NCBI RefSeq assembly: GCF_964204865.1
Contig: NC_135258.1
Location: 10,850,001-10,914,000 of the forward strand
Direction of reading: 5' to 3'
Length of the DNA stretch: 64,000 nt
From: Styela clava
Taxonomy: Eukaryota
The position numbers were made by a program, and so were the translations under genes. The notes below the pieces were generated by a model. That model ran no database searches. It had not been told where the DNA came from and was given only the letters and a program-made list of their open reading frames with translations. Positions 8,072 through 23,000 of the stretch are shown here, piece after piece (the stretch's first letter is position 1; the number at the start of each line of letters is the position of its first letter).

Positions 8072-10963
8072 CAGTGGCGGCGCGTGGTCATTTTGACAAC
8101 CGGGGCAAGCTACTGCGGGACCAAGTCACCCCCATCTACGGGGACAGGATGAGCGCTGTAAGTTCTCCCATCATTTTATGAGTATAAAAACCATTCCATC
8201 GGTAACAACCAATCGGCAAAAGCGACAATTTTTAACGATAAGAAAGTGTCTTTAAAATCGGTCCAAGTCAAGGGATTAATAAATATAGACATAGTTTATT
8301 TTGAAACCTCTTTCAAAAGGAAAGGCAATATTTACCCAGATAAATACAATGACATATTAACAGAAACTTCGGGAAAGCAGACAAAACCTAAAATAAGGTT
8401 TAAAACGTTACTATGAAGAAAGGAAAGTTAATGCAAAGATAAGGACATGCGTCGCTCACTCATAGATATATATGCTGGCAATGCTGCTAGACTTCTACTG
8501 CTTGAACATATATGCAACACGCCGCGGTTTCTTGGAAGCAAAATGCTCAATAACGCGCTGATTAAAGTCATGCATCCCAGAAATAACGTCTCTGTGAATG
8601 GATAAAACAGCCAAGGAATTTAATCTATCTTGCTTCATTGTGTTTCTGAGATACGTTTTAATACGCTTCAGCGTGCTGAATGTTCGCTCTGCGTCGGCGG
8701 AGAAATAGGCGTCGTCAAAATGATGTCCAGAAATTTAGTTTGATTGGTGTATATACATCGCAATTCATTTTTCAATTTACCCACGTTTATCATGGGGTAA
8801 AATATGGAGACAGTAGCCAACAAATGGATGGGAAATTGACGTGCAAATTTTGAAAAATTTTTGGGGTTTATCAAAGAGAACGCGGCAAGGTGTTCAGTGC
8901 GCAGACGATCGCCTATTTGATTCACCAGAATGTCACAGCATTCCTTCGCAGACAAAATCAAACGGCGCGGCGTAAAGAAGCACTCCATGTGTCGTCGTAT
9001 TTTATTGTTTCCCGGATACGAGATACAGCATCGCAGAAGTCTGAAATACACGACTGCACAGACGCTCCATTCATTAGCCTTGACTGCAATGCGCCGTATA
9101 ATACATCCACGTGATAGAATATTGTGGAGAAAAAAGCGAGAAAAAATCAAAACTCACCATCTTCGAGCAGACGCTTTAGACCTGCCGCCTCCCTCACAGA
9201 GCGTTCGTCCCAAACCGGAGAGCTCTGAATGCCATTGAAACACTCAATGAGCTCAGACCTAATTTCGGACACGCCCTGCACCACGCGTGATTGGAAGTTC
9301 CAACGTGTTGGTGCACAAGCTGGGAGACGGCGGCTACATATCTGGCGAAGGAGGTCAGAGCGCTTCGGCGAAACGGAAAAAAATGAAGAAAACCCCGAAA
9401 CATTTGCAAAAAATATACGGACGAGAGGGGTATCAAGACACATATTTTTAATAACGAGGTTAAATTGGTGTGCATAACAATGTAAAAAATGCGCATGAGG
9501 AAAATCTTCTTTTATATAAACTTGAACACCATGTTTCGACCCACTCATGACTGCCGCGCCGTCATAAGTTTGAGCTATCAATTTTGACTTCGCGTTGTAA
9601 GGCTGTAACACTTCTTTCAGTACAGTCGATATCCCGCAATCCGTGCGATCAACGATTGGTACAAAGCTGTGAAATCTCTCGGTAGGTTTACCATCTTTCA
9701 CGAACCGAAAAATCACAGCCAGTTGGGAAACGCACGTGATGTCAGTTGTCTCGTCAGACTGAATCGAAAGGAACTGGCAATTCTCAATTTCCAGAGCCAA
9801 ATGTTGTAAATAAATTTTATACATTGAGTCGAGCAAATCATTTTGGATATCCTTAGATGTCCCTTTCGAAACAGTTGCGGCATCAAGATGATCTCTCAAT
9901 ACTGTATCTAGGGATGTGGTGTATTCCACCATATCCAAAATCCCCCTCTATTAGAAGAGCCAGCCTGTTCATCGTGCCCACGGAGGGACAGCTCGTGACA
10001 ACCAATGAACTTCAAAACATCTATCAATCGACCGAGAACATGGCGGTTTTTCTCGACGTTTTGGTTGTGCCGACGAATAGAAACCGCGCGTCCTTCATCC
10101 AACTGTGCTGCAATATTAACATTTCCGAATGTTCGGTATTTTACTGCATTGTCCAGATGCTCCATAGAAGATTGATGATCCGTGGCACGCTCGGAAAGAT
10201 GTTTAAGATCTCTAAAACCAAATTTACACCAACGTGAGTCACGGGCGGTAGCAAAAAGTAGGCAATAAAAACAAAAAAGTGCATTTTTGTCCTCGCTGTA
10301 ACACAACCATTCGTGTTTTTTATATCAAGTTTCTGCGCAGAATGTACGCCGACGCTATGGGATTGTTCCAGTGAACAATTTTTTGGTTGATAAGGCCCAA
10401 GACGTTGTACCTCCAATTTTTGTTCCAGCGGCAGCTGCGAAAACGGAGTGCGAAGTAGTGCATCAACCTTATTCATTATGAGGTCTAAGGCTAAGAAATG
10501 CGAAGTCGGAAAGAAGTGAGGAGCTCAAAAGGAATGTGGAAAATCGAAAGCAAATGGACTAAAGGTCTCTAACTGATTCAAATAGCGAAACAAGCGACAA
10601 AAACGAAGGCGAGGAAACTATCAACTCTTCAAGCAACCAACGAACGAGAAGGAATGCGTGAATATGTCAACACGTTGTTGTAAGAAACGTCGGCATAGTG
10701 TCGTCATAATTTCGGGGCTAGCCCCGATGATTTAGTAAAAGAAACAGAAAACAAACGCGGCGAGTGGAAGATAAAAGAGAGAATACGATATACAATGAGC
10801 AACCGGGGCAAAATCGGCGTCGCCCCGTCGACGTTCGGCGAAGGCTTTGCGAGCGAAAAATGAACCATGTCGGGAGAATATGGCTAGTGTAGACAGTCTG
10901 TGCAACCGATATTGAGGTATTTTTCGAATATTTTTTTTCGGCCCTATTGACGCGCCGCCACTG
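8072..10963 (-). mobile_element. hAT DNA transposon (2892 bp; ZMYM1/DUF4371-type transposase)
   Basis: Perfect 14-bp TIRs CAGTGGCGGCGCGT (8072-8085) / ACGCGCCGCCACTG (10950-10963). Perfect 8-bp TSD gtaaaatc (8064-8071, 10964-10971). Internal transposase remnants. Visibly more GC/CpG-rich than the flanks. Confidence 0.95.
8495..10476 (-). pseudogene. Disrupted hAT transposase
   Basis: Pieces in different frames: TTF-type Zn-finger region (LFCFYCLLF...W..GF...H..S..H), LRGHDE, SIQSDETTD, QTYDGAAVMSG, HCYAHQFNL, TRW and hATC tail ADAERTFSTLKRIKTYLRNTMKQDRLNSLAVLSIH...MFKQ* (TAG 8497-8495). Frameshifts near 10350, 9940, 8965 and 8700; in-frame TGA at 9149-9147. Confidence 0.92.
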
Positions 10964-11049: not shown

Positions 11050-11196
11050 GTAGGATAGGATTTACATATCCTGGAAGAGAGGAAAGTCGACAAGACGGCT
11101 TAATCATATGGCGAACCTCGGCATCTCGTCCGGTTGCCAAACCATCTCTGTTATGGGATTAGTCAGTCAGTTATTTGTTTTAGGAAGCATGGACTG
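11050..11196 (-). repeat. Probable 5'-truncated SINE (3' part)
   Basis: Reverse complement shares blocks with 17785-17910 (agtc..cct.aaacaaata..tgac, ggttc, atatg..aa.cctatcc). Confidence 0.5.
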
Positions 11197-11202
11197 GGGT
11201 CA

Positions 11203-11262
11203 AACTTCTTCAGTCAATTGTGATTGAGCAAAGAAGTTCAATTCTTCCCAAGTAAAAAGTAA
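11203..11262 (-). pseudogene. 60-bp diverged copy of part of CDC123 exon 7
   Basis: Translates LLFTWEELNFFAQSQLTEEV* versus LLFTWEELNSFVQSQLTEED at 12667-12608. Gap-free alignment, about 8 substitutions. Confidence 0.8.
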
Positions 11263-11673: not shown

Positions 11674-14600
11674 TCAAGTGTTTGAGTTGGAAGCAGGTAA
11701 CTGCCAAGGTTCATCATCATCAGATGATGAATCGTCGTTTTCATTTTGAATTTTCTGGAAAATATTTGAATTCCACAGTGAAAGAAAGAAATGAAATCTA
11801 GCTGATACAGATCACATTAAATACCCTTTTTCAGAAAAAAGACTATACCAGGTGTTAGCATTCCTAACTAGGCTAACTACTGTACAATAAACTTAGGTAG
11901 TAATATTGAATAATGCTGCATGAGACATTCACAAATTCATTCTGTTATATTCCTGGCCAAAACACCCATAATTTGTAAAACAAATGTGAACTGCTTGTCT
12001 GAGAAATTCTGGGTTCAGTCATAAAAACATTACAGCATAAAATTTGTTAAAAGTTTAATTTAACCTTTGAACCACAAAGCTATAGCTGCTTTGATTTTTA
12101 TCACAGTATCCTTGCCACTAGTGCAATATGGGTGCACCTACACAAAGGCATAGAGCAGAAACGGTACTCCTGAAGTATGCGCATCAAGATGTCGCACAAC
12201 CTGAACCCTAAACTGGTACACAACCGGAGTTCAGGTTGTGCGCCATCTTGGTGGGCATACTTCAGGAAGTCCGCAGAAACAGTAGTTAGGAACACACCAC
12301 CACATTCAATCACTGCTGAGTAAATTCAAAATTAGTTTACCATTCTTAAAAAATCAACTAGTTTTGTTGCGTCTTCACCGCGACTTAAATCTAGGAAATC
12401 TTGTGGCATTCTATAACTCAGCGTTTCACTTGGTTGCATTGTTGCATCTCTCTTAGCAAATCTGAACATTCCAATGGGTTCACCATCTAAAAATAAAACA
12501 ATGTTTTTTCTGACTAAACTGTTCGATTTTATTTATGTGCACATGACCTTGTATCCAGCAAATTCTTATGAAAAATACAATAATATACCTGGTGTAATAA
12601 TGGGACAATCTTCTTCAGTTAATTGTGATTGCACAAAAGAGTTCAATTCTTCCCATGTAAACAGTAATGAATCTGTCATTGAACCCCAAGGATTAAAATC
12701 AATTATCCAGAATTTTCCCTGAAACAAGAAAAATGTTGTTTGTAGGTCATTAAGTGAGCACATTCGACAGTTTACTATGAAACAATAAAATGGGTCTGGT
12801 TCATTACTGAGAAAATAACAGCAAAACATAGAAAGCAATTGCAAACACAACTAGAGTTAGTAAATGAATGAATTTAACCTAAATTCTTAATCAACCTAAG
12901 TCTAGTCATCAAGGTAAAAAGCATAAGCTATATGTCCGCCATCTTGGTTCACATACTTCGGGAATACCATATTTCCTATATTACATCATGATCATCTAAT
13001 TTACCAATTCAGAAATCCGAAACTGAAAAATATATTTTCTAAGAACAATGATCTAGTTAAATCTATTAATACTCACATCTCTCTTCTTGTAGATGTCAAC
13101 AACATCTAAAAAAAATTGGGTTATTCAGTACTTTTGAATCATTAAAATAACACAGGTACTAGAGAGAATAGTAATGTAAAATTTTGCCAATGGTTATGGC
13201 ATATTGGCATTCTCTAATCCTTCATGAGATTCAGATTTGTAGCACTCACACAAAGTGATCATTGGTTTAATAATGATTGTCAAGTCTGTAACATAATAAA
13301 TCATTTTTAGACACTTTATATTTCATTCAATCATTTTCTTTTACAAGATACTCACAATTAGAATTATTAAATTTATGTTGAATTTTTTCTTGAAAAAATC
13401 TGCAAATTTCTACAGGTAAAGACTGTTGTTGGCTTTCAACATATTCATAATATTGTTGATGATGTCTCTGACACGCAGCAATGAGTTTGTGGTTTCGTAC
13501 AAAACATCTGAATTCCATTCCAGGTACTAAGTTTGCCCATTTCCTCAAAACCAACTGAAAATATTTAATAAATCTGATAAGAAAAAAGATACGGTTTTAT
13601 TTTGGATCACATTTTCATAAATTTTATTTTGTATTGTTCCATCTGACCAAAGGCAGACTTCCTCAGACAAACAGTTTACAATAATGATAAAAAAAAAAGA
13701 ACAATTATAGGATGCATTATACATGCATGATATTTATGACAATATTTGCTGATATCAATATTCCGATGCTTGGAAATTGCTGATTTGATGCTGATGCTGA
13801 AATTGTTAATCTAATTTAATAATCAGATTATTAAAATTTGACATCCTTGCAGTGGGAACATGATTTATGTCAATATCATGTAATATAAATCTCAATAAAA
13901 TATTCTAATTTAAATTGAATAAAATTCCAGAAAACATACAATTCGGGTGTGAACATCCCTTCTGGCGGAAAGAACGACATATATATAATTTTGAACAAAT
14001 TATAAAAGATTAAAATCTTACTTCTTTCTGGAATTGTGGATCTGGTATTGAATCATCAGTACATAGTTTAAATGGAGATGTCAAATCGTAAGTGATGAAG
14101 TCGGAACTTTTCATAAGTAAAATGATGTCACCTGATAAAACAATAAATATAGAAAAGAATTCAATTTCACGAAGCAGTATTTTGAACTCTAATTTCTGAT
14201 ATTTGGACACACTTTAAAAAATATATTGCTGTACGAAGATTGTTTATAATTATTAAACAAATGAGCAAGGTGATTCGAGTGCATCATAGGAATAAATCGA
14301 ACAGATTCTAATTGATAGTTCCTCTTTGATGTAATAATATTTGTGTCGGCATGATACGCAATCAGTGAAAAGTTTGAAAATATTTTCAACAACAATTAAC
14401 ATTAACTGCCCAAGTTTTGGCATCAGGCATTCTGTAACAAGCAGAAGCAAAAATGCTAGTAGTAAGCCTCATCTATGTTGGCAATAATGGCTAAGGGTCA
14501 ATCAGGACCATTGTCCTCAGACAGAATGTAACAAGGAAGTAGCCAAACCTAGTTTCAAGTTTTTCCAGACATAGTGGTGTATTCAATAACAACCCTATTT

Positions 14601-16695
14601 CATGAAAAGGGTATAAAAACATAAAGTCACCTGGAGTGTTACACTTCAAACTATTATTCGATGTTATCCAAATAGCATCTTTGGGTGAACTCCAATTCAA
14701 TTTTGGAAATGATTTCCAATTTAATTTCTCTAAAACTTCTTTGATTTGTTCCAGAAGAGCAGTGAATTGAGGTGCCTGTAAACAACAATTGTCTTCTTCA
14801 ATTGCTTCTCCATAAGTATATAAACCACAATCCAATATTTCCAAGCAAAAATATTGCAATCCCAGTACTGGTATATTTTGAAATAGGTATATAATATATA
14901 CATATACCAGAATTTTTTTGTAATAAATCTTCTGAATTAGTAAGTTAGGATAATTATGAATCCATTTTTTCAAATTATGACTGAATTTGGCGTCCCTACA
15001 AAGGCAAGAATATCACAGATTCGAAATCTTAGAAAATCTTCAAACCTCATTTTCATTTTGTGTTTCGTCTTCATCTGACCAATTTTCATTATCATCGAAA
15101 TTACTTTGTATACTTAAATCAGCACCTTTTGGTAATATCAATGGACCATCTTTTTGCAAATATTCAACAAAATCATCCGGCAATGGTATAATAAAGCTAA
15201 AAAACAAAAATCCACAAATGACAGCCATCGATTATTAAACACATTTGAAGTGAACAATTACAGTTCTTCAACATATTCAGTATTAAGAGTTCAATAGCCT
15301 GAAAATTATGAATTTCAATCTAATAGTTAAATTATATTAGGAAATTTAGTGTTATTTACTGATATATGTCAAAAACTAATTTACATTGCATCTAGTATAA
15401 ATCAAATTCACTATATAATTTAAAAGAATCCTCGAAAAATAAATCAAAGAACTGTTGAATTCAAATTAATACGAGAGATTAAAAAGCGATAAATGTAAGC
15501 AAAAAATAGATGAATATTTGTTAAATCGAAATAAAAAGATCATATGTTTTCCTCTGTTGCTGGGCCACAAACTCCGTCAGAAAATTCAGTGCCATCTTCA
15601 GATGGCCACCACATTGGAATATGACATCGAAATTTTAGCTGACCATCTTTTGAAGAAAGTGTCTCTCCTGAGTAGTTCAGTCTCACTAATGCAAGACCTA
15701 CTTTACCATCAGAATGCATTGATCGAAACTTTCCTGCACTTTTTCTCTTCTCTGTGTATATTGAAGACCCAGATTCAATAGATCCTTCTCCTTCTATGCT
15801 CACAGGAACAAGTCGTTTTCTAATGACACCGGTGAATTTGGTACGAGCTGTGAGCTCTTGACCAATATAACATCCTTTATGAAAGCTGACACCATTCATA
15901 AAATCAAGATTGCATTCCAAGGGCAGACAAGTTCCAGGTGGCAAATCTAACGGACCCTCTGGAACACCAATGTAATGTCTTTTATGATGATATGCATTAA
16001 TATCCATGTTAATTAATGCAGAGTCACTTTCTGACATATTTTCAACCACCAGTCTATGCCCGAGCATTGGGACCCTCGGGTCAATGGCAGAAGTGACTAC
16101 ATTGCTGAACTGTGGAGAAATATGAAAAGAATTTCCAGACATTGCCTGCACCACCGATAGATTATCTCTGGGTGTAATACTCAGTTTTTTTCTCAGTTTA
16201 TATAATTTTAAAATTTTAATGATACTTTCGGAATTTGACGACTCACATTCAAGAAGGACTTTGTTTTCTGTGTCGTGTTGTTGATGATATAACATAATAT
16301 CATGCATAATGCGTCCATGTTGGTTTAAAATCATTGCATACATGCATTTCATTTCAGGGAGAAGTTCAACGTCATTGGTTATAATCCCTTGTAAAAAATT
16401 GGTAACATCCCGTCCTTCGAGTTCAAGTAAACTCCGATGTTTCAAATGAGCATATCTGACATTATCCTGATCCTTGTCAACAATATGCATATGCCTTGCA
16501 CTAGACAGCATTTTTGATTTCGAACAGAACCGCGGAAAGATACGTCGTAATAGTGTAACTCTTGACATAGCCAAAGACATTTTAAATAAAATAAGATTTC
16601 ATCAACTCCTACCTTTTTATTGTGATGTCTGAAAATTGTGAATACCATTTTGAGAACATGCAATTCATCACATGTTCTTTTGTTAATGTTGTCAT
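11674..16695 (-). CDS. CDC123: Cell division cycle protein 123 (eIF2 assembly ATP-grasp protein), 9 exons, 357 aa
   Basis: Exons 16695-16613 (MTTLTKEHVMNCMFSKWYSQFSDITIK, missed by the ORF track), 15196-15046, 14775-14631, 14131-14022, 13554-13356, 13105-13077, 12718-12589, 12486-12341, 11754-11674. All GT-AG and in phase. Family motifs FPKLNWSSPKDA, KSSDFI, LVLRKW..L.PGMEFRCFV, IDFNPWG..TDSLLFTWEEL. Confidence 0.95.
12163..12272. mobile_element. GG-terminal hairpin MITE (family A, short form)
   Basis: GGTACTCCTGAAGTATG...CATACTTCAGGAAGTCC, nearly palindromic. Perfect TSD gcagaaac (12155-12162, 12273-12280). Same subfamily as 54531-54643. Confidence 0.85.
12932..12968. mobile_element. Solo terminal arm of MITE family A
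   Basis: ATGTCCGCCATCTTGGTTCACATACTTCGGGAATACC is near-identical to the right TIR of 22562-22796. Confidence 0.7.
15540..16580 (-). CDS. IBA57: Mitochondrial Fe-S cluster assembly factor IBA57 (CAF17/YgfZ family), intronless, nested in CDC123 intron 1
   Basis: 346-aa single-exon ORF. Arg-rich mitochondrial-presequence-like N-terminus, R..L.LEG.D...FLQGIITND, DPR, GVSFHKGCYIGQELTART family signature. Confidence 0.95.
   Translation of the reverse strand: MSLAMSRVTLLRRIFPRFCSKSKMLSSARHMHIVDKDQDNVRYAHLKHRSLLELEGRDVTNFLQGIITNDVELLPEMKCMYAMILNQHGRIMHDIMLYHQQHDTENKVLLECESSNSESIIKILKLYKLRKKLSITPRDNLSVVQAMSGNSFHISPQFSNVVTSAIDPRVPMLGHRLVVENMSESDSALINMDINAYHHKRHYIGVPEGPLDLPPGTCLPLECNLDFMNGVSFHKGCYIGQELTARTKFTGVIRKRLVPVSIEGEGSIESGSSIYTEKRKSAGKFRSMHSDGKVGLALVRLNYSGETLSSKDGQLKFRCHIPMWWPSEDGTEFSDGVCGPATEENI
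16581..16635 (-). promoter_or_regulatory. Candidate IBA57 leader: exonic acceptor TTTTCAG|(16628), CDC123 donor (16612) and 6-codon uORF (16602-16582)
   Basis: Minus strand reads caattttcAG|acatcacaataaaaag|GTaggagttg ATGaaatcttattttattTAA a ATG(IBA57). The motifs are seen; the function is inferred. Confidence 0.45.
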
Positions 16696-17606
16696 ATTGT
16701 AGTATTGTTGAGTTTCAAATTTTGAGGAAGTTTAAGTATACCTTAATACCAGTCAATCAATAATTTTTCTAAAAAAAGTTTTGTAATCTCATGTTTATAT
16801 TGACTTCAACAATCCATATTTAAAAAAAAAGATATGACTTTATTGGCAAAACTAATATATAATAAAATACAGAATATGAAAGTTCTTCATGACCACTAAC
16901 AGACTACTAGAATTGCATGAACAAGAGGACAAGAGTAAAACTGTAAAATGAGACAGGCATGGTGAAAATAGATACCTGGATCTAAAGAAGCGAGTGCCTT
17001 GACGATTACGCCCCTATCCAGTTATCTGTAAATATAGTAAAGATAGTTGGGCACAATATGTCTATCTCTCAGTCCTCCATGCAGACGCAGTGATGTAAGA
17101 AAGCAATCTGGTATTTTTGTATTTCATTATTTGTCAAACAAGTATTACTGTATTAACATTCTTGAATATCTGTCTGAGCGAAACAAGTGTCTGAGTGGCC
17201 TCACTAACTTTACAGCTTTAATTGTTACGTCAATCTGTCAATATTAACTCATTGCCGATAGGCCATTAGGTATTACTGCATTACGGAAAGAAACATGGAA
17301 ATTGATGCTCGTGGAAACATCCATAGCTTCCTTCACCATCAGATCCTAATTCAGTACGGTACCGGTAGGCTACCGTATTTTCACGCTCCTGGCAATGCAA
17401 ACAAAAACTCAGTCAAAAGGAAAAATTTGTCTCAATTATTGAGTTTATATCTGAGTTATGCAAGTAAAATAAAAAATTAACATAAGCTGCGGCAGACGGG
17501 TCCAAGGACACTTGCAACAACATCGTGATCTTTAAATTTTGTGTCTTACCCGACATCTCTTTCAATTCCAAATATAGGCCATCCATACAAAGGTACATAT
17601 GGTCTT

Positions 17607-17910: not shown

Positions 17911-18594
17911 CATTTAGTTATGGATCGAATCTTATATTCTTAATCGGAAAAAAACACGTCTGCTTCAGTGAGTCATTATTACATAGTGTTGAGCATTGCG
18001 AATGCAGAATATATCAGGACTGATGCGATTACTGGTACTTGATTTTATGGAAATCATGTGCGAAAACACGGATTCGTTTTTTCCGAAAGCAATGTATGCG
18101 AGAAAAGAACTTCAAAGTAGCGTTTAGTTCTCGTATACCCCCAAAACATTCCGGGACTCTCGTTGGTTCATATTCCACCGAAAAAGAACATCTGTAATAA
18201 GACTAATTATGAGAAATGAAAGATCAATTTCATTGTTATGTCATAAACGTTTTAATGGCATTGCTGCTAACTACATACAGGTATATTACAGTAGTTGACT
18301 TGTCGGCCGGTTATTATCAGTTTTCATTATGGAAATGTTGGTAAGTTTTGTTTTCATTAATTCGTGATTTGGTGACTCACCGAAAAAGCATGCTTCAATT
18401 GCAGTGAGCGTAAGTGGATGTAAATTCGTATTTCTTACTTATGACTAACTGCTTGCATCATTTTGTCATTTCCACCCCTTCTCAAAATGCCCGTTGGACC
18501 TTTTTATTCGGGAAGCACCTCGGCGAGAAAATTATTACGCAACAAACCCTTTGAGAAACCAAGCACCGCCCTGGCAAGTTTGCTCATCGTCAAA

Positions 18595-20095: not shown

Positions 20096-23000
20096 ATGAA
20101 AAACAACGCTAGCAGTGTTCGTATGCCATCACCACGTCAAAATGCCGATAAATCTTCCCCAAAACGAGGATCTAAATCTGATAATCAGAATTTGAAGTTG
20201 CAAGGTGGTTGCAAAGGTGCCAAGCCGTGCACAAAGGTACCTATAATTCCATGTATATTAATTCTATAATAATAACACGAACATATCTATAATTATTGAA
20301 ATTTATTTAGGGTGGAGATACAATTGTTAAACAAGAAGAAAATTATCTGGCGAGATGTACAAATTTTCGGTTGACAACTGGTTATGAATTGAGCATTTGT
20401 AATTGTAAGCATATTCGAAAGATTCGAATTGGAGAACGACATTCGATTGTGAATCCTCAGCGATGGTTATGTGAAACATGCTTCACAACAGAATCTGTAT
20501 GGGCGTGTCTAAGTTGCCCGAATGTAGCATGCGGCAGGTACGTATCTGAAGCCTACACTCTGTATGTTTTACTGTGATATGTTGTTATTTTTCGATATCC
20601 CTGTTGCGTCAATTAGTTTCAATAACACAAATTTTACTTCTGCAAATTCACAAGCTCACTCGCACATGATAGAAACTCACTCAAGAGTAGAGAGATATAT
20701 TTCCTGTTTTGTGTCTTTGTACTCAGCACATTAATAAGGTCTTGTATCATCAATGTTTTTAGTCAATCCTATATACTTTTGAATAAATTATTAACTTATT
20801 GCTTTCGGACATAGATGGACCAGATATTAGCATTCCTAAATGATCAATCAACTGCATGAAAGCTCTAATTTTTTTTGCCATTTGAATTTATATACATTCA
20901 TCATTTGTATATATTTATTTCATTAATTTGGTAAGTGAGATAAAATTTCTATTTGATAAAGGAATGTATTTCAAAATGATTGTATGTGAATGTGTTCATA
21001 CAACTGGGTTCGAAATCAACAAATTTACAAATGTCAGACAATTGTATTTGTTCGATAATTCATCTGCTCGCGTCAGGAAATTATATCTGTCTTTGGAGCC
21101 CTCTTTTTCACTCATAATATGACATCAGAATTTTCCGTTAGTTTTGGCCAGTTGTGACTAAGCTTTAAGAAAGTTCTCCAATACTGTAATTGCTAAGCTG
21201 GCTATTACCAAATATTAGTTTGTTATACTAAATCAAGTTTGGGCCAGACATAAGATATCAAATCATGAAAATATAAGGATGAACTTTCACCTGGTATTAA
21301 ATTGGTTATAAAACAAAAGGTCAATTTGTCCTATATTAAACGAGTGGTTATGCTCTAAAACAGTGGTTCTCAAGATTTTTGAGCCGAGCCCCCTTTTTAG
21401 AAAATCCCAAGTCTCATGCCCCACCTCAAAAATAACTAGCTAACAATAAGCTACGAATAACAGATAGTAAGGCGAAAGTATGTTTTATTTATAAAGCATG
21501 TTGGAAATACGTGTATACGTGTACGTGTATACATAATAAAGAAATGTTTGAGCACTACTGTCTAAAAAAAGGCTTTCTCAAACTTATTTAGTTCCATATA
21601 ATATTAAATAGGCATATTGTTTTTTTATTCGACCTATTTATACACCTCTCTGGGCAAGGCTCTGTATAAGCATCCGATAGGTAAGAACCTATGATATTTT
21701 GGAAGGACCAGATTCCTTGCAATTCGTCATTGCCTATCCAATTTATTACAGTCTGAGTAAGGTGTCATACATAGGATTTGAACCCAAGATTTTTAATCAG
21801 TAATATTACTTCAGCATCTTTACCACTTGGCCATTGCGCCTATTGTATTTGTAACAAATAAACAAGAATACGTGGTACTGAATATATGTAATGTAAAAAA
21901 TTTTGTTTTGCAGGTTTATAAAAGAACACGCCCTAACACATTTTCAAGAATCTGGTCATCCACTGGTTATCGATGTCAATGAACTGTATGTTTTCTGTTA
22001 TAAATGTGATGATTATGTGCTTAATGATAATAATTCCAGTGACATCAAAGTCCTCAGAGAAACTCTTTTGGTAAGAAATTGGAAGGAGTAATGTCGTTAA
22101 GATAAATTTTAATTTAATGCTCTACCGGAAGATATTATATGAATTAATAAAATCAGAACGCAATTTCATATATGTACTATAGATAGAACGGATTCGTGAT
22201 TGAATCTTTGTTGGAAATTTGTTTTAGTAAAATCTGCTAAACAAATTTTGTGATTTTGCCAGAGAAGAAGTAGAAAATTTTTTTATAGTATTGCAATTTG
22301 CAGACATGTTAAGTTTTTTTCCTTACGTTTCCAGATGTCAAACTAATTTTAATTTCACCTCATTTATTATTTTTGATTTGATGTGTTATGTAGTAAAATC
22401 ATGAGACATGTCAGAATGTATTATATAAAATAATCTGAACAAGGCTTTCTATAAGCAACTCTGAAATGAAGGATAACTACTATGTTTCTGGTTTGGCATT
22501 ACCTTACCAACTTATTACACCTTGGGGGAGGTGATTGCCATGGAATCTAAACTCAAGATTTGGGGCTCCCGAAGTATGCGAACCAAGATGGCGGACATCG
22601 GAATGTAATATGTGTACTAGGTTAGGGTTAGGCCATAATTTTATGTATAAATACTACGGGAGGCTCTTGACTAGTCTTCGAACTGATAATAGGACTAAAA
22701 TAAGGAAAATTGGAAAAAATTATCGCCTAACCCTAACCTGTTGCCCATGTTACGTTCCGATGTCCGCCATCTTGGTTCGCATACTTCGGGAGCACCCAAG
22801 ATTTTTATCTGCAATGCCAACATATTTCAGTCCAACCATCGCTTTGATACATAGACTTTTGAACCCACAAAACCCACCCGACCTGATTATATAATTTTAT
22901 ATGACAATGGCAAGTATTTGGCAGCAACTTTTCAGATAACTCTCTATAAAACGACATATAAACTTCACGATTATCAATATAATAAATTCAATTTAGATCG

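Follow-up and report, generated by a model that had tools for sequence, protein, structure and literature searches.

Background

In the cholinergic locus, VAChT lies in the first intron of ChAT on the same strand, as in the C. elegans unc-17/cha-1 unit, and one precursor is alternatively processed. The first exon that the two genes share is non-coding, and both genes serve one pathway.

Intercistron-less operons of Ciona are resolved by spliced-leader (SL) trans-splicing (PMC1488885). In these operons tandem genes give one precursor that takes one leader, either mRNA is possible, the acceptor lies at the 3' end of the upstream gene, polyadenylation takes place at the AG of the following trans-splice site and a canonical poly(A) signal is often missing. 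A second source, PMC11155486, defines operons as consecutive same-strand genes with zero intergenic distance. It places major trans-splice sites of Ciona preferentially at the first functional acceptor, and its TS-1stAS genes yield both trans- and cis-spliced mRNA there. In upstream ORF (uORF) or bicistronic mRNAs, uORFs of 10-30 codons are the usual case for reinitiation (PMC10275272).

Here we describe a locus of the ascidian Styela clava in which CDC123 intron 1 contains the whole IBA57 gene in the same orientation. The window, the stretch of DNA that was analysed, spans 64,000 nt of NC_135258.1 (10,850,001 to 10,914,000), and both genes lie on its minus strand. As in the cholinergic locus, the guest occupies intron 1 of the host on the same strand, both in the window and in a second tunicate locus (L013). 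Unlike in that locus, exon 1 in Styela carries the start codon of the host, and the genes are unrelated housekeeping genes. The likeness to the operons of PMC1488885 lies in the missing poly(A) signal and would lie in the one precursor, the one leader and the choice of either mRNA; the difference is that the guest sits in intron 1 and its candidate acceptor lies beside the first coding donor of the host, in Styela within coding sequence. The zero intergenic distance of PMC11155486 does not apply because IBA57 is nested. The upstream acceptor of the locus (acceptor 1) behaves as in the TS-1stAS class, although that class yields one protein and does not cover a second acceptor that chooses another gene. 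A retained form of the Styela transcript would resemble the reinitiation mRNAs of PMC10275272, with a short uORF ending 28 nt before IBA57; the uORF of this predicted form would however be the first exon of another gene.

The nesting is conserved and apparently undescribed. A search of the openly accessible literature found no account of the CDC123/IBA57 pair, the one paper listed for the two names together being on mouse uterus, and the one supplementary file of PMC11155486 examined does not contain CDC123, IBA57 or CAF17. A switch between the two genes, proposed by a first-pass annotation in the form of two tandem 3' splice sites, is plausible but unproven.

Results and discussion

Gene identities and layout

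The features of the locus are collected in Table 1. The IBA57 protein contains the Pfam domains GCV_T and CAF17_C; the folate-binding domain, the C-terminal beta-barrel and the KGCY motif are all present. With a protein named Styela clava CAF17 homolog it shares 99% identity. The identity of CDC123 rests on a D123 domain across its spliced exons, and the RefSeq accessions of the two genes are consecutive in Styela clava. The IBA57 ATG lies 32 nt past the donor of intron 1, which is 1416 nt long. IBA57 has a single match in the Styela genome, and a genome search found no second copy or retrocopy of IBA57 or of the 5' region. No match was returned by a metagenome scan with protein P0008 or by a scan of genome contigs with A2. 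Protein P0006 carries an N-terminal extension by eye, uninformative without its DNA.

Table 1. Features of the CDC123/IBA57 locus (window coordinates, except the last row)
Feature	Position	Strand	Remarks
Upstream coding exon (MMQAVSH), RefSeq CDC123 isoform X2	18439..18461	-	donor GTAAG at 18438; matches N-terminus of P0127
Non-coding upstream exon, end	17550..17575	-	donor GT at 17549; cis-spliced to acceptor 1
Acceptor 1	16769..16777	-	AG ends at 16769, first exon base 16768; takes spliced leader and cis exon
CDC123 exon 1	16613..16768	-	coding from ATG 16695; residues 1-28; RefSeq protein P0121
28-codon uORF	16609..16695	-	formed from exon 1 on intron retention; stops 28 nt upstream of IBA57 ATG
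68-codon out-of-frame ORF	16442..16648	-	strong context; overlaps IBA57 start; removed by acceptor 2
Acceptor 2 (candidate)	16629..16637	-	codons F-S-D of CDC123 exon 1; score in top 0.7%
Intron 1 donor	16606..16612	-	AG/GTAGGAG; unspliced reading leads to a TAG stop
6-codon intronic uORF	16582..16602	-	weak context; stop 1 nt before IBA57 ATG
IBA57 coding sequence	15540..16580	-	346 aa, intronless
Intron 1 remainder	15197..15539	-	variants at 15360, 15350, 15338
Decoy, 9-mer identical to acceptor 2	15299..15307	-	intron 1; score 8.56 (above acceptor 2); no contig joint
CDC123 exon 2	15045..15196	-	then seven more exons to about 11614
L013 layout	CDC123 exon 1 1230-1303, donor 1304, IBA57 1386-2363, exon 2 3835		IBA57 intronless, 325 aa

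RNA-like runs

No listed run is recorded as RNA. Runs X1, X2, X4, X6 and X7, five of the nine RNA-like Styela runs, were used and treated as RNA because their contigs contain joints across CDC123 introns, and X10, which has no such joints, is DNA-like. The joint 16613/15196 between exons 1 and 2 is present in the contigs of all five RNA-like runs (three studies). All eight CDC123 introns are joined in X1, X4 and X6 and none in X10, and IBA57 is covered by contigs in 5/5 runs. Run X14, from another organism, placed no contigs on the locus. Contigs show the presence and never the absence of a joint. Assembly discards short side branches, and a branch that carries the leader next to a co-linear path is likely to be pruned.

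The RNA-like runs deviate from the window at 16675, 16730-16731 and 16746-16749 (one synonymous difference; two changes and two inserted letters in the 5' UTR). These differences are likely alleles, and leave acceptor 2 untouched.

Acceptor 1 takes a spliced leader or a cis exon

The first-pass annotation had placed acceptor 1 73 nt ahead of the CDC123 ATG, and acceptor 2 at a distance of 16 nt from the downstream donor GT and 48 nt from the IBA57 ATG. Both AG sites and all of these distances were reproduced when the coordinates were recomputed. Its premise of spliced-leader trans-splicing in ascidians also held for this animal. The exon-1 contig of run X4 stops at 16770 and carries 20 foreign letters, which are the spliced leader (one of the three runs with a complete loose-end table); those of X6 and X7 stop at 16769 and 16770. 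The 25 loose letters at acceptor 1 in run X2, the one run concerned, match 17551-17575 exactly and belong to a non-coding cis exon that is seen joined to acceptor 1 only. Styela clava thus trans-splices, and acceptor 1 is real, with a dual use for spliced leader or cis exon. In a further form, annotated by RefSeq as isoform X2, an upstream coding exon is joined to exon 2, and exon 1 is skipped together with IBA57.

The leader letters have 391 exact copies in the genome, compared with 0 for a reversed control, and 128 of them are followed by AG-GT. The SL genes form an array with a 1634-nt tandem unit in which the leader is followed by a GTAAGT donor (G000:C8:4230890-4580000 and beyond; L025). 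A comparison of the SL RNA gene with Rfam returned no family at the gathering score. The Styela leader matches the one listed as "Chordata 1" in PMC3795323 (Table 1).

Most of the 391 copies lie outside the SL array. Many are paired at a spacing of about 5-6.5 kb and share the same downstream sequence, and such pairs occur on many contigs (for example G000 C1:13883919 and 13890238; loci L003-L005, L007 and L008). This pattern would fit a spliced leader carried by terminal repeats of mobile elements or by retrocopies.

The candidate acceptor within CDC123 exon 1

The AG of acceptor 2 makes 16628 the first exon base. All five ATGs of exon 1 (16695, 16673, 16668, 16659 and 16648) lie upstream of it, as the first-pass annotation had noted; the ATG at 16602 in the intron, which opens an ORF of six codons in weak context, had been overlooked. 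Sites were scored with a small model trained on nine true Styela acceptors, and only two loci were readable as DNA. Acceptor 2 scores 6.25, within the top 0.7% of 3090 AGs; the true sites score 1.7-6.7 when each is left out in turn.

The first-pass annotation had cautioned that TTTTCAG may occur by chance. The minus strand of the window contains the motif 15 times. An AG scoring at least 4.72, the lower of the scores in two species, is contained in 7% of random 115-nt stretches. Among synonymous recodings of exon 1, 4% give a site as strong as acceptor 2 and 17% give TTTTCAG. All of these figures for acceptor 2 are post hoc because the site had been chosen beforehand by the first-pass annotation. 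There are 0 such strong sites in 2737 nt of other coding sequence. The branch motif yUnAy is absent at -18 to -45 of acceptor 2, as it is for 3/9 true sites, and a scan for branch-point motifs did not separate true from candidate sites. The motif of nine letters is insufficient alone, because an identical copy in intron 1 has a higher score and shows no joint. A leader or a joint at 16628 was found in 0/3 runs with complete loose-end tables, which as contig data show presence and not absence.

RNA across the IBA57 start

In four of the five runs (X1, X2, X6 and X7) the IBA57 contig begins at 16642, reaching 30 nt into exon 1, and is co-linear through 16628 and the donor. Unspliced RNA across acceptor 2 therefore exists, be it mature or precursor, and the co-linear link of exon 1 to IBA57 may derive from precursor. 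RNA of the upstream region was assembled at a depth of 4-8. In X4, the run with the leader on CDC123, the IBA57 contig begins at 16611, one base into the donor, without leader and unlinked to exon 1. This contig end is explained by no model considered here.

Contig depth cannot rank the parts, and in four runs the depth of exon 1 relative to CDC123 is 1.40, 1.17, 1.16 and 1.52, and relative to CDC123 and IBA57 together 0.69, 0.26, 0.83 and 1.05. A fit of these depths gives IBA57 a weight near zero for exon 1, and run X2 alone drives it. From X1 to X2, which belong to one study, the depth of IBA57 rises from 19 to 80 and that of exon 1 goes from 26.5 to 27.2. Exon-1 depth tracks CDC123 rather than IBA57, a weak hint that points away from intron retention.

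Conservation in other tunicates

Conservation of the exonic AG had been set by the first-pass annotation as a test of its switch, and the AG is not conserved. The exact Ser-Asp AG cannot be encoded in 5/6 other CDC123 proteins of the tunicate clade, the two closest included; Phallusia alone allows it. In P0133 no AG can be encoded within residues 18-26. The site of L013 homologous to acceptor 2 scores -3.0.

The nesting is found elsewhere. In L013 and L014, from one species, IBA57 lies within CDC123 intron 1 on the same strand. In a quick tree the L013 IBA57 protein falls loosely with Phallusia (SH-aLRT 82), outside the Styela clade. The IBA57 start is 32 nt from the donor in Styela and 82 nt in L013. 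Of the eight AGs between the two ATGs of L013, the best is situated 38 nt into the intron; its distance to IBA57 is 44 nt, and its score ranks within the top 0.7% of 548 AGs. In this out-of-sample test, 5.7% of random 156-nt stretches contain a site as strong; the joint chance for Styela and L013 is 0.4%, half of that being post hoc. An intron of 38 nt is likely too short for cis-splicing. Trans-splicing favours unpaired acceptors (PMC1488885). What is conserved between these two distant species is the layout and not the nucleotide: downstream of the CDC123 ATG and 44-48 nt ahead of IBA57, each has a top-1% acceptor unpairable with the exon-1 donor.

Among 15 CDC123 loci, IBA57 is present in two (L013 and L014); two others of the same species (L012 and L018) have no IBA57 in view, and the remaining 11, several of them short, gave no IBA57 match. 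In Clavelina the CDC123 and IBA57 accessions are consecutive in two annotations, which indicates adjacency, not nesting. The locus tags of the two genes are far apart in the four vertebrates that have tags for both (Coilia, Danionella, Pleurodeles and Lucifuga). L018:1-3346 is 99.6% identical to L013 from L013:3586 on, and its upstream 3.3 kb differ and contain no IBA57 match. Either intron 1 carries an insertion in one allele or the L018 contig is chimeric.

Upstream ORFs and the 3' end of IBA57

From acceptor 1 the IBA57 leader would be 188 nt long with six ATGs; from acceptor 2 it would be 48 nt with one weak ATG. Over both species, four ATGs remain downstream of the acceptor and ahead of the IBA57 start; each carries a pyrimidine at -3, where both IBA57 starts carry a purine. 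The Styela IBA57 ORF lacks out-of-frame ATGs in its first 100 nt. In L013 the uORF has 39 codons and stops 36 nt before the IBA57 start.

The remainder of intron 1 is likely the IBA57 3' UTR. Neither AATAAA nor ATTAAA follows the IBA57 stop in Styela intron 1; the L013 intron has AATAAA at 2600 and 2840. Contigs on the IBA57 side end at 15199-15515, and none listed bridges into exon 2. One low-depth contig of run X2 ends at 15199, one base short of the exon-2 AG, which recalls the poly(A) addition at the next acceptor in the Ciona operons of PMC1488885.

Models for the release of IBA57

We propose, with a probability of roughly 50%, that a dedicated acceptor, probably SL-spliced, frees IBA57 from the CDC123 start, and that in Styela this acceptor lies within coding sequence, with first base 16628. 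One upstream transcribed region feeds acceptor 1, where the leader or the cis exon is seen joined, and splicing from 16612 to 15196, also seen, yields CDC123 and discards IBA57. On a different set of molecules, 16628 would receive the leader or a cis exon from upstream. This would remove five of the six upstream ATGs, including the CDC123 start and that of the ORF overlapping the IBA57 start. The intron would then be kept, probably because an acceptor complex 16 nt from the donor hinders donor use or because of prior 3'-end formation. The IBA57 RNA would end inside the intron or at the exon-2 AG, and one precursor would give CDC123 or IBA57, never both.

The estimate of 50% is given because the leader from acceptor 1 has six ATGs in 188 nt, compared with one weak ATG in 48 nt from acceptor 2. 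The leader at acceptor 1, the same nesting in L013 and L014, the strong L013 acceptor and the weak depth hint also speak for a dedicated acceptor. Against it stand the 4/5 IBA57 contigs that cross 16628, the leaderless X4 contig at 16611, the unconserved AG, the unjoined decoy and the Ciona preference for the first functional acceptor (PMC11155486). The switch of the first-pass annotation accordingly stands in part: acceptor 1 takes leader and cis exon, and an equivalent strong acceptor exists in a second species, but no joint was seen at 16628. Its further argument, that only 16 nt before the donor would disfavour intron removal, is weak. Addition of the leader would give a capped first exon of about 40 nt, and intron retention needs another cause for this reason.

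The main rival, which we regard as rather unlikely, has the leader at acceptor 1 and intron 1 kept and ended. Exon 1 would act as the 28-codon uORF with reinitiation on IBA57, the switch would be splicing versus 3'-end formation, and acceptor 2 would be a bystander. The 4/5 IBA57 contigs that overlap exon 1 and cross the donor fit such a molecule, although they need few precursor reads, given the depth of 4-8 at which upstream RNA was assembled. The uORFs are suitable as well (28 codons with a gap of 28 nt in Styela, 39 codons with 36 nt in L013), 10-30 codons being the usual case for reinitiation (PMC10275272), IBA57 is near the donor in both species, and the first 100 nt of its Styela ORF hold no out-of-frame ATG. 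However, a ribosome would meet six upstream ATGs, three of which (out-of-frame or first) have A at -3, and one ORF extending across the IBA57 start; retention would leave the strong AG of both species unexplained, and the weak depth hint of run X2 also argues against retention. Reinitiation could, speculatively, tie IBA57 to the supply of eIF2, which CDC123 assembles according to its RefSeq name. An internal promoter in exon 1 or at the start of the intron, giving an unspliced IBA57 mRNA from near 16640-16600, appears improbable. It would suit the X4 contig that begins at 16611 without leader or exon-1 link and, weakly, the IBA57:CDC123 contig depths of 0.4 to 3.5 across runs, but this start is seen in one run while four others reach 16642, and the acceptor-like site of two species would go unexplained. 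It is very improbable that the excised intron is the source of IBA57 RNA, or that a leader at 16628 is real but minor noise. The X2 contig end one base before the exon-2 AG, with its Ciona parallel in poly(A) addition (PMC1488885), would agree with such mixed origins; the contig is single and of low depth, however, and donor-crossing contigs are not lariat products.

Extending the dedicated acceptor to other ascidians is more tentative, and we hold the following to be possible. An inside-out operon may have been kept across ascidian orders, in which the acceptor that takes the leader decides between CDC123 and the nested IBA57. The Styela IBA57 acceptor would be embedded in three CDC123 codons, and the same bases would be protein code on one mRNA and a branch-and-acceptor signal on the other. 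The site would have moved between intron and exon, and its distance to IBA57 would have stayed at 44-48 nt.

If true, gene organisation in trans-splicing animals would gain a third layout in addition to monocistronic genes and tandem operons, in which a guest gene follows the first coding exon of its host and is released by an acceptor unpairable with the neighbouring donor. PMC11155486 leaves open why a given acceptor receives the leader, and this locus would be a short case in which to test it. It would also illustrate how a gene lacking introns can depend on the promoter of another gene where trans-splicing operates. Were retention with reinitiation true instead, the locus would be a conserved case of a host exon acting as a uORF. 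On either reading, distant ascidians have two essential genes within a single transcription unit.

Other features of the window

Directly downstream of CDC123, positions 11196-11261 hold a 66-nt copy (86% identical) of part of its exon 7. CDC123 introns contain a very high-copy short interspersed repeat (12160-12270 and 12930-12970), with depth in the thousands in all runs examined. On the plus strand, 20311-22088 is a divergent gene with a zf-UBP domain, and its promoter region likely faces that of CDC123 at about 18.5-19 kb. Broken ORFs on the minus strand at 8400-10500 resemble hAT-type transposases by eye.
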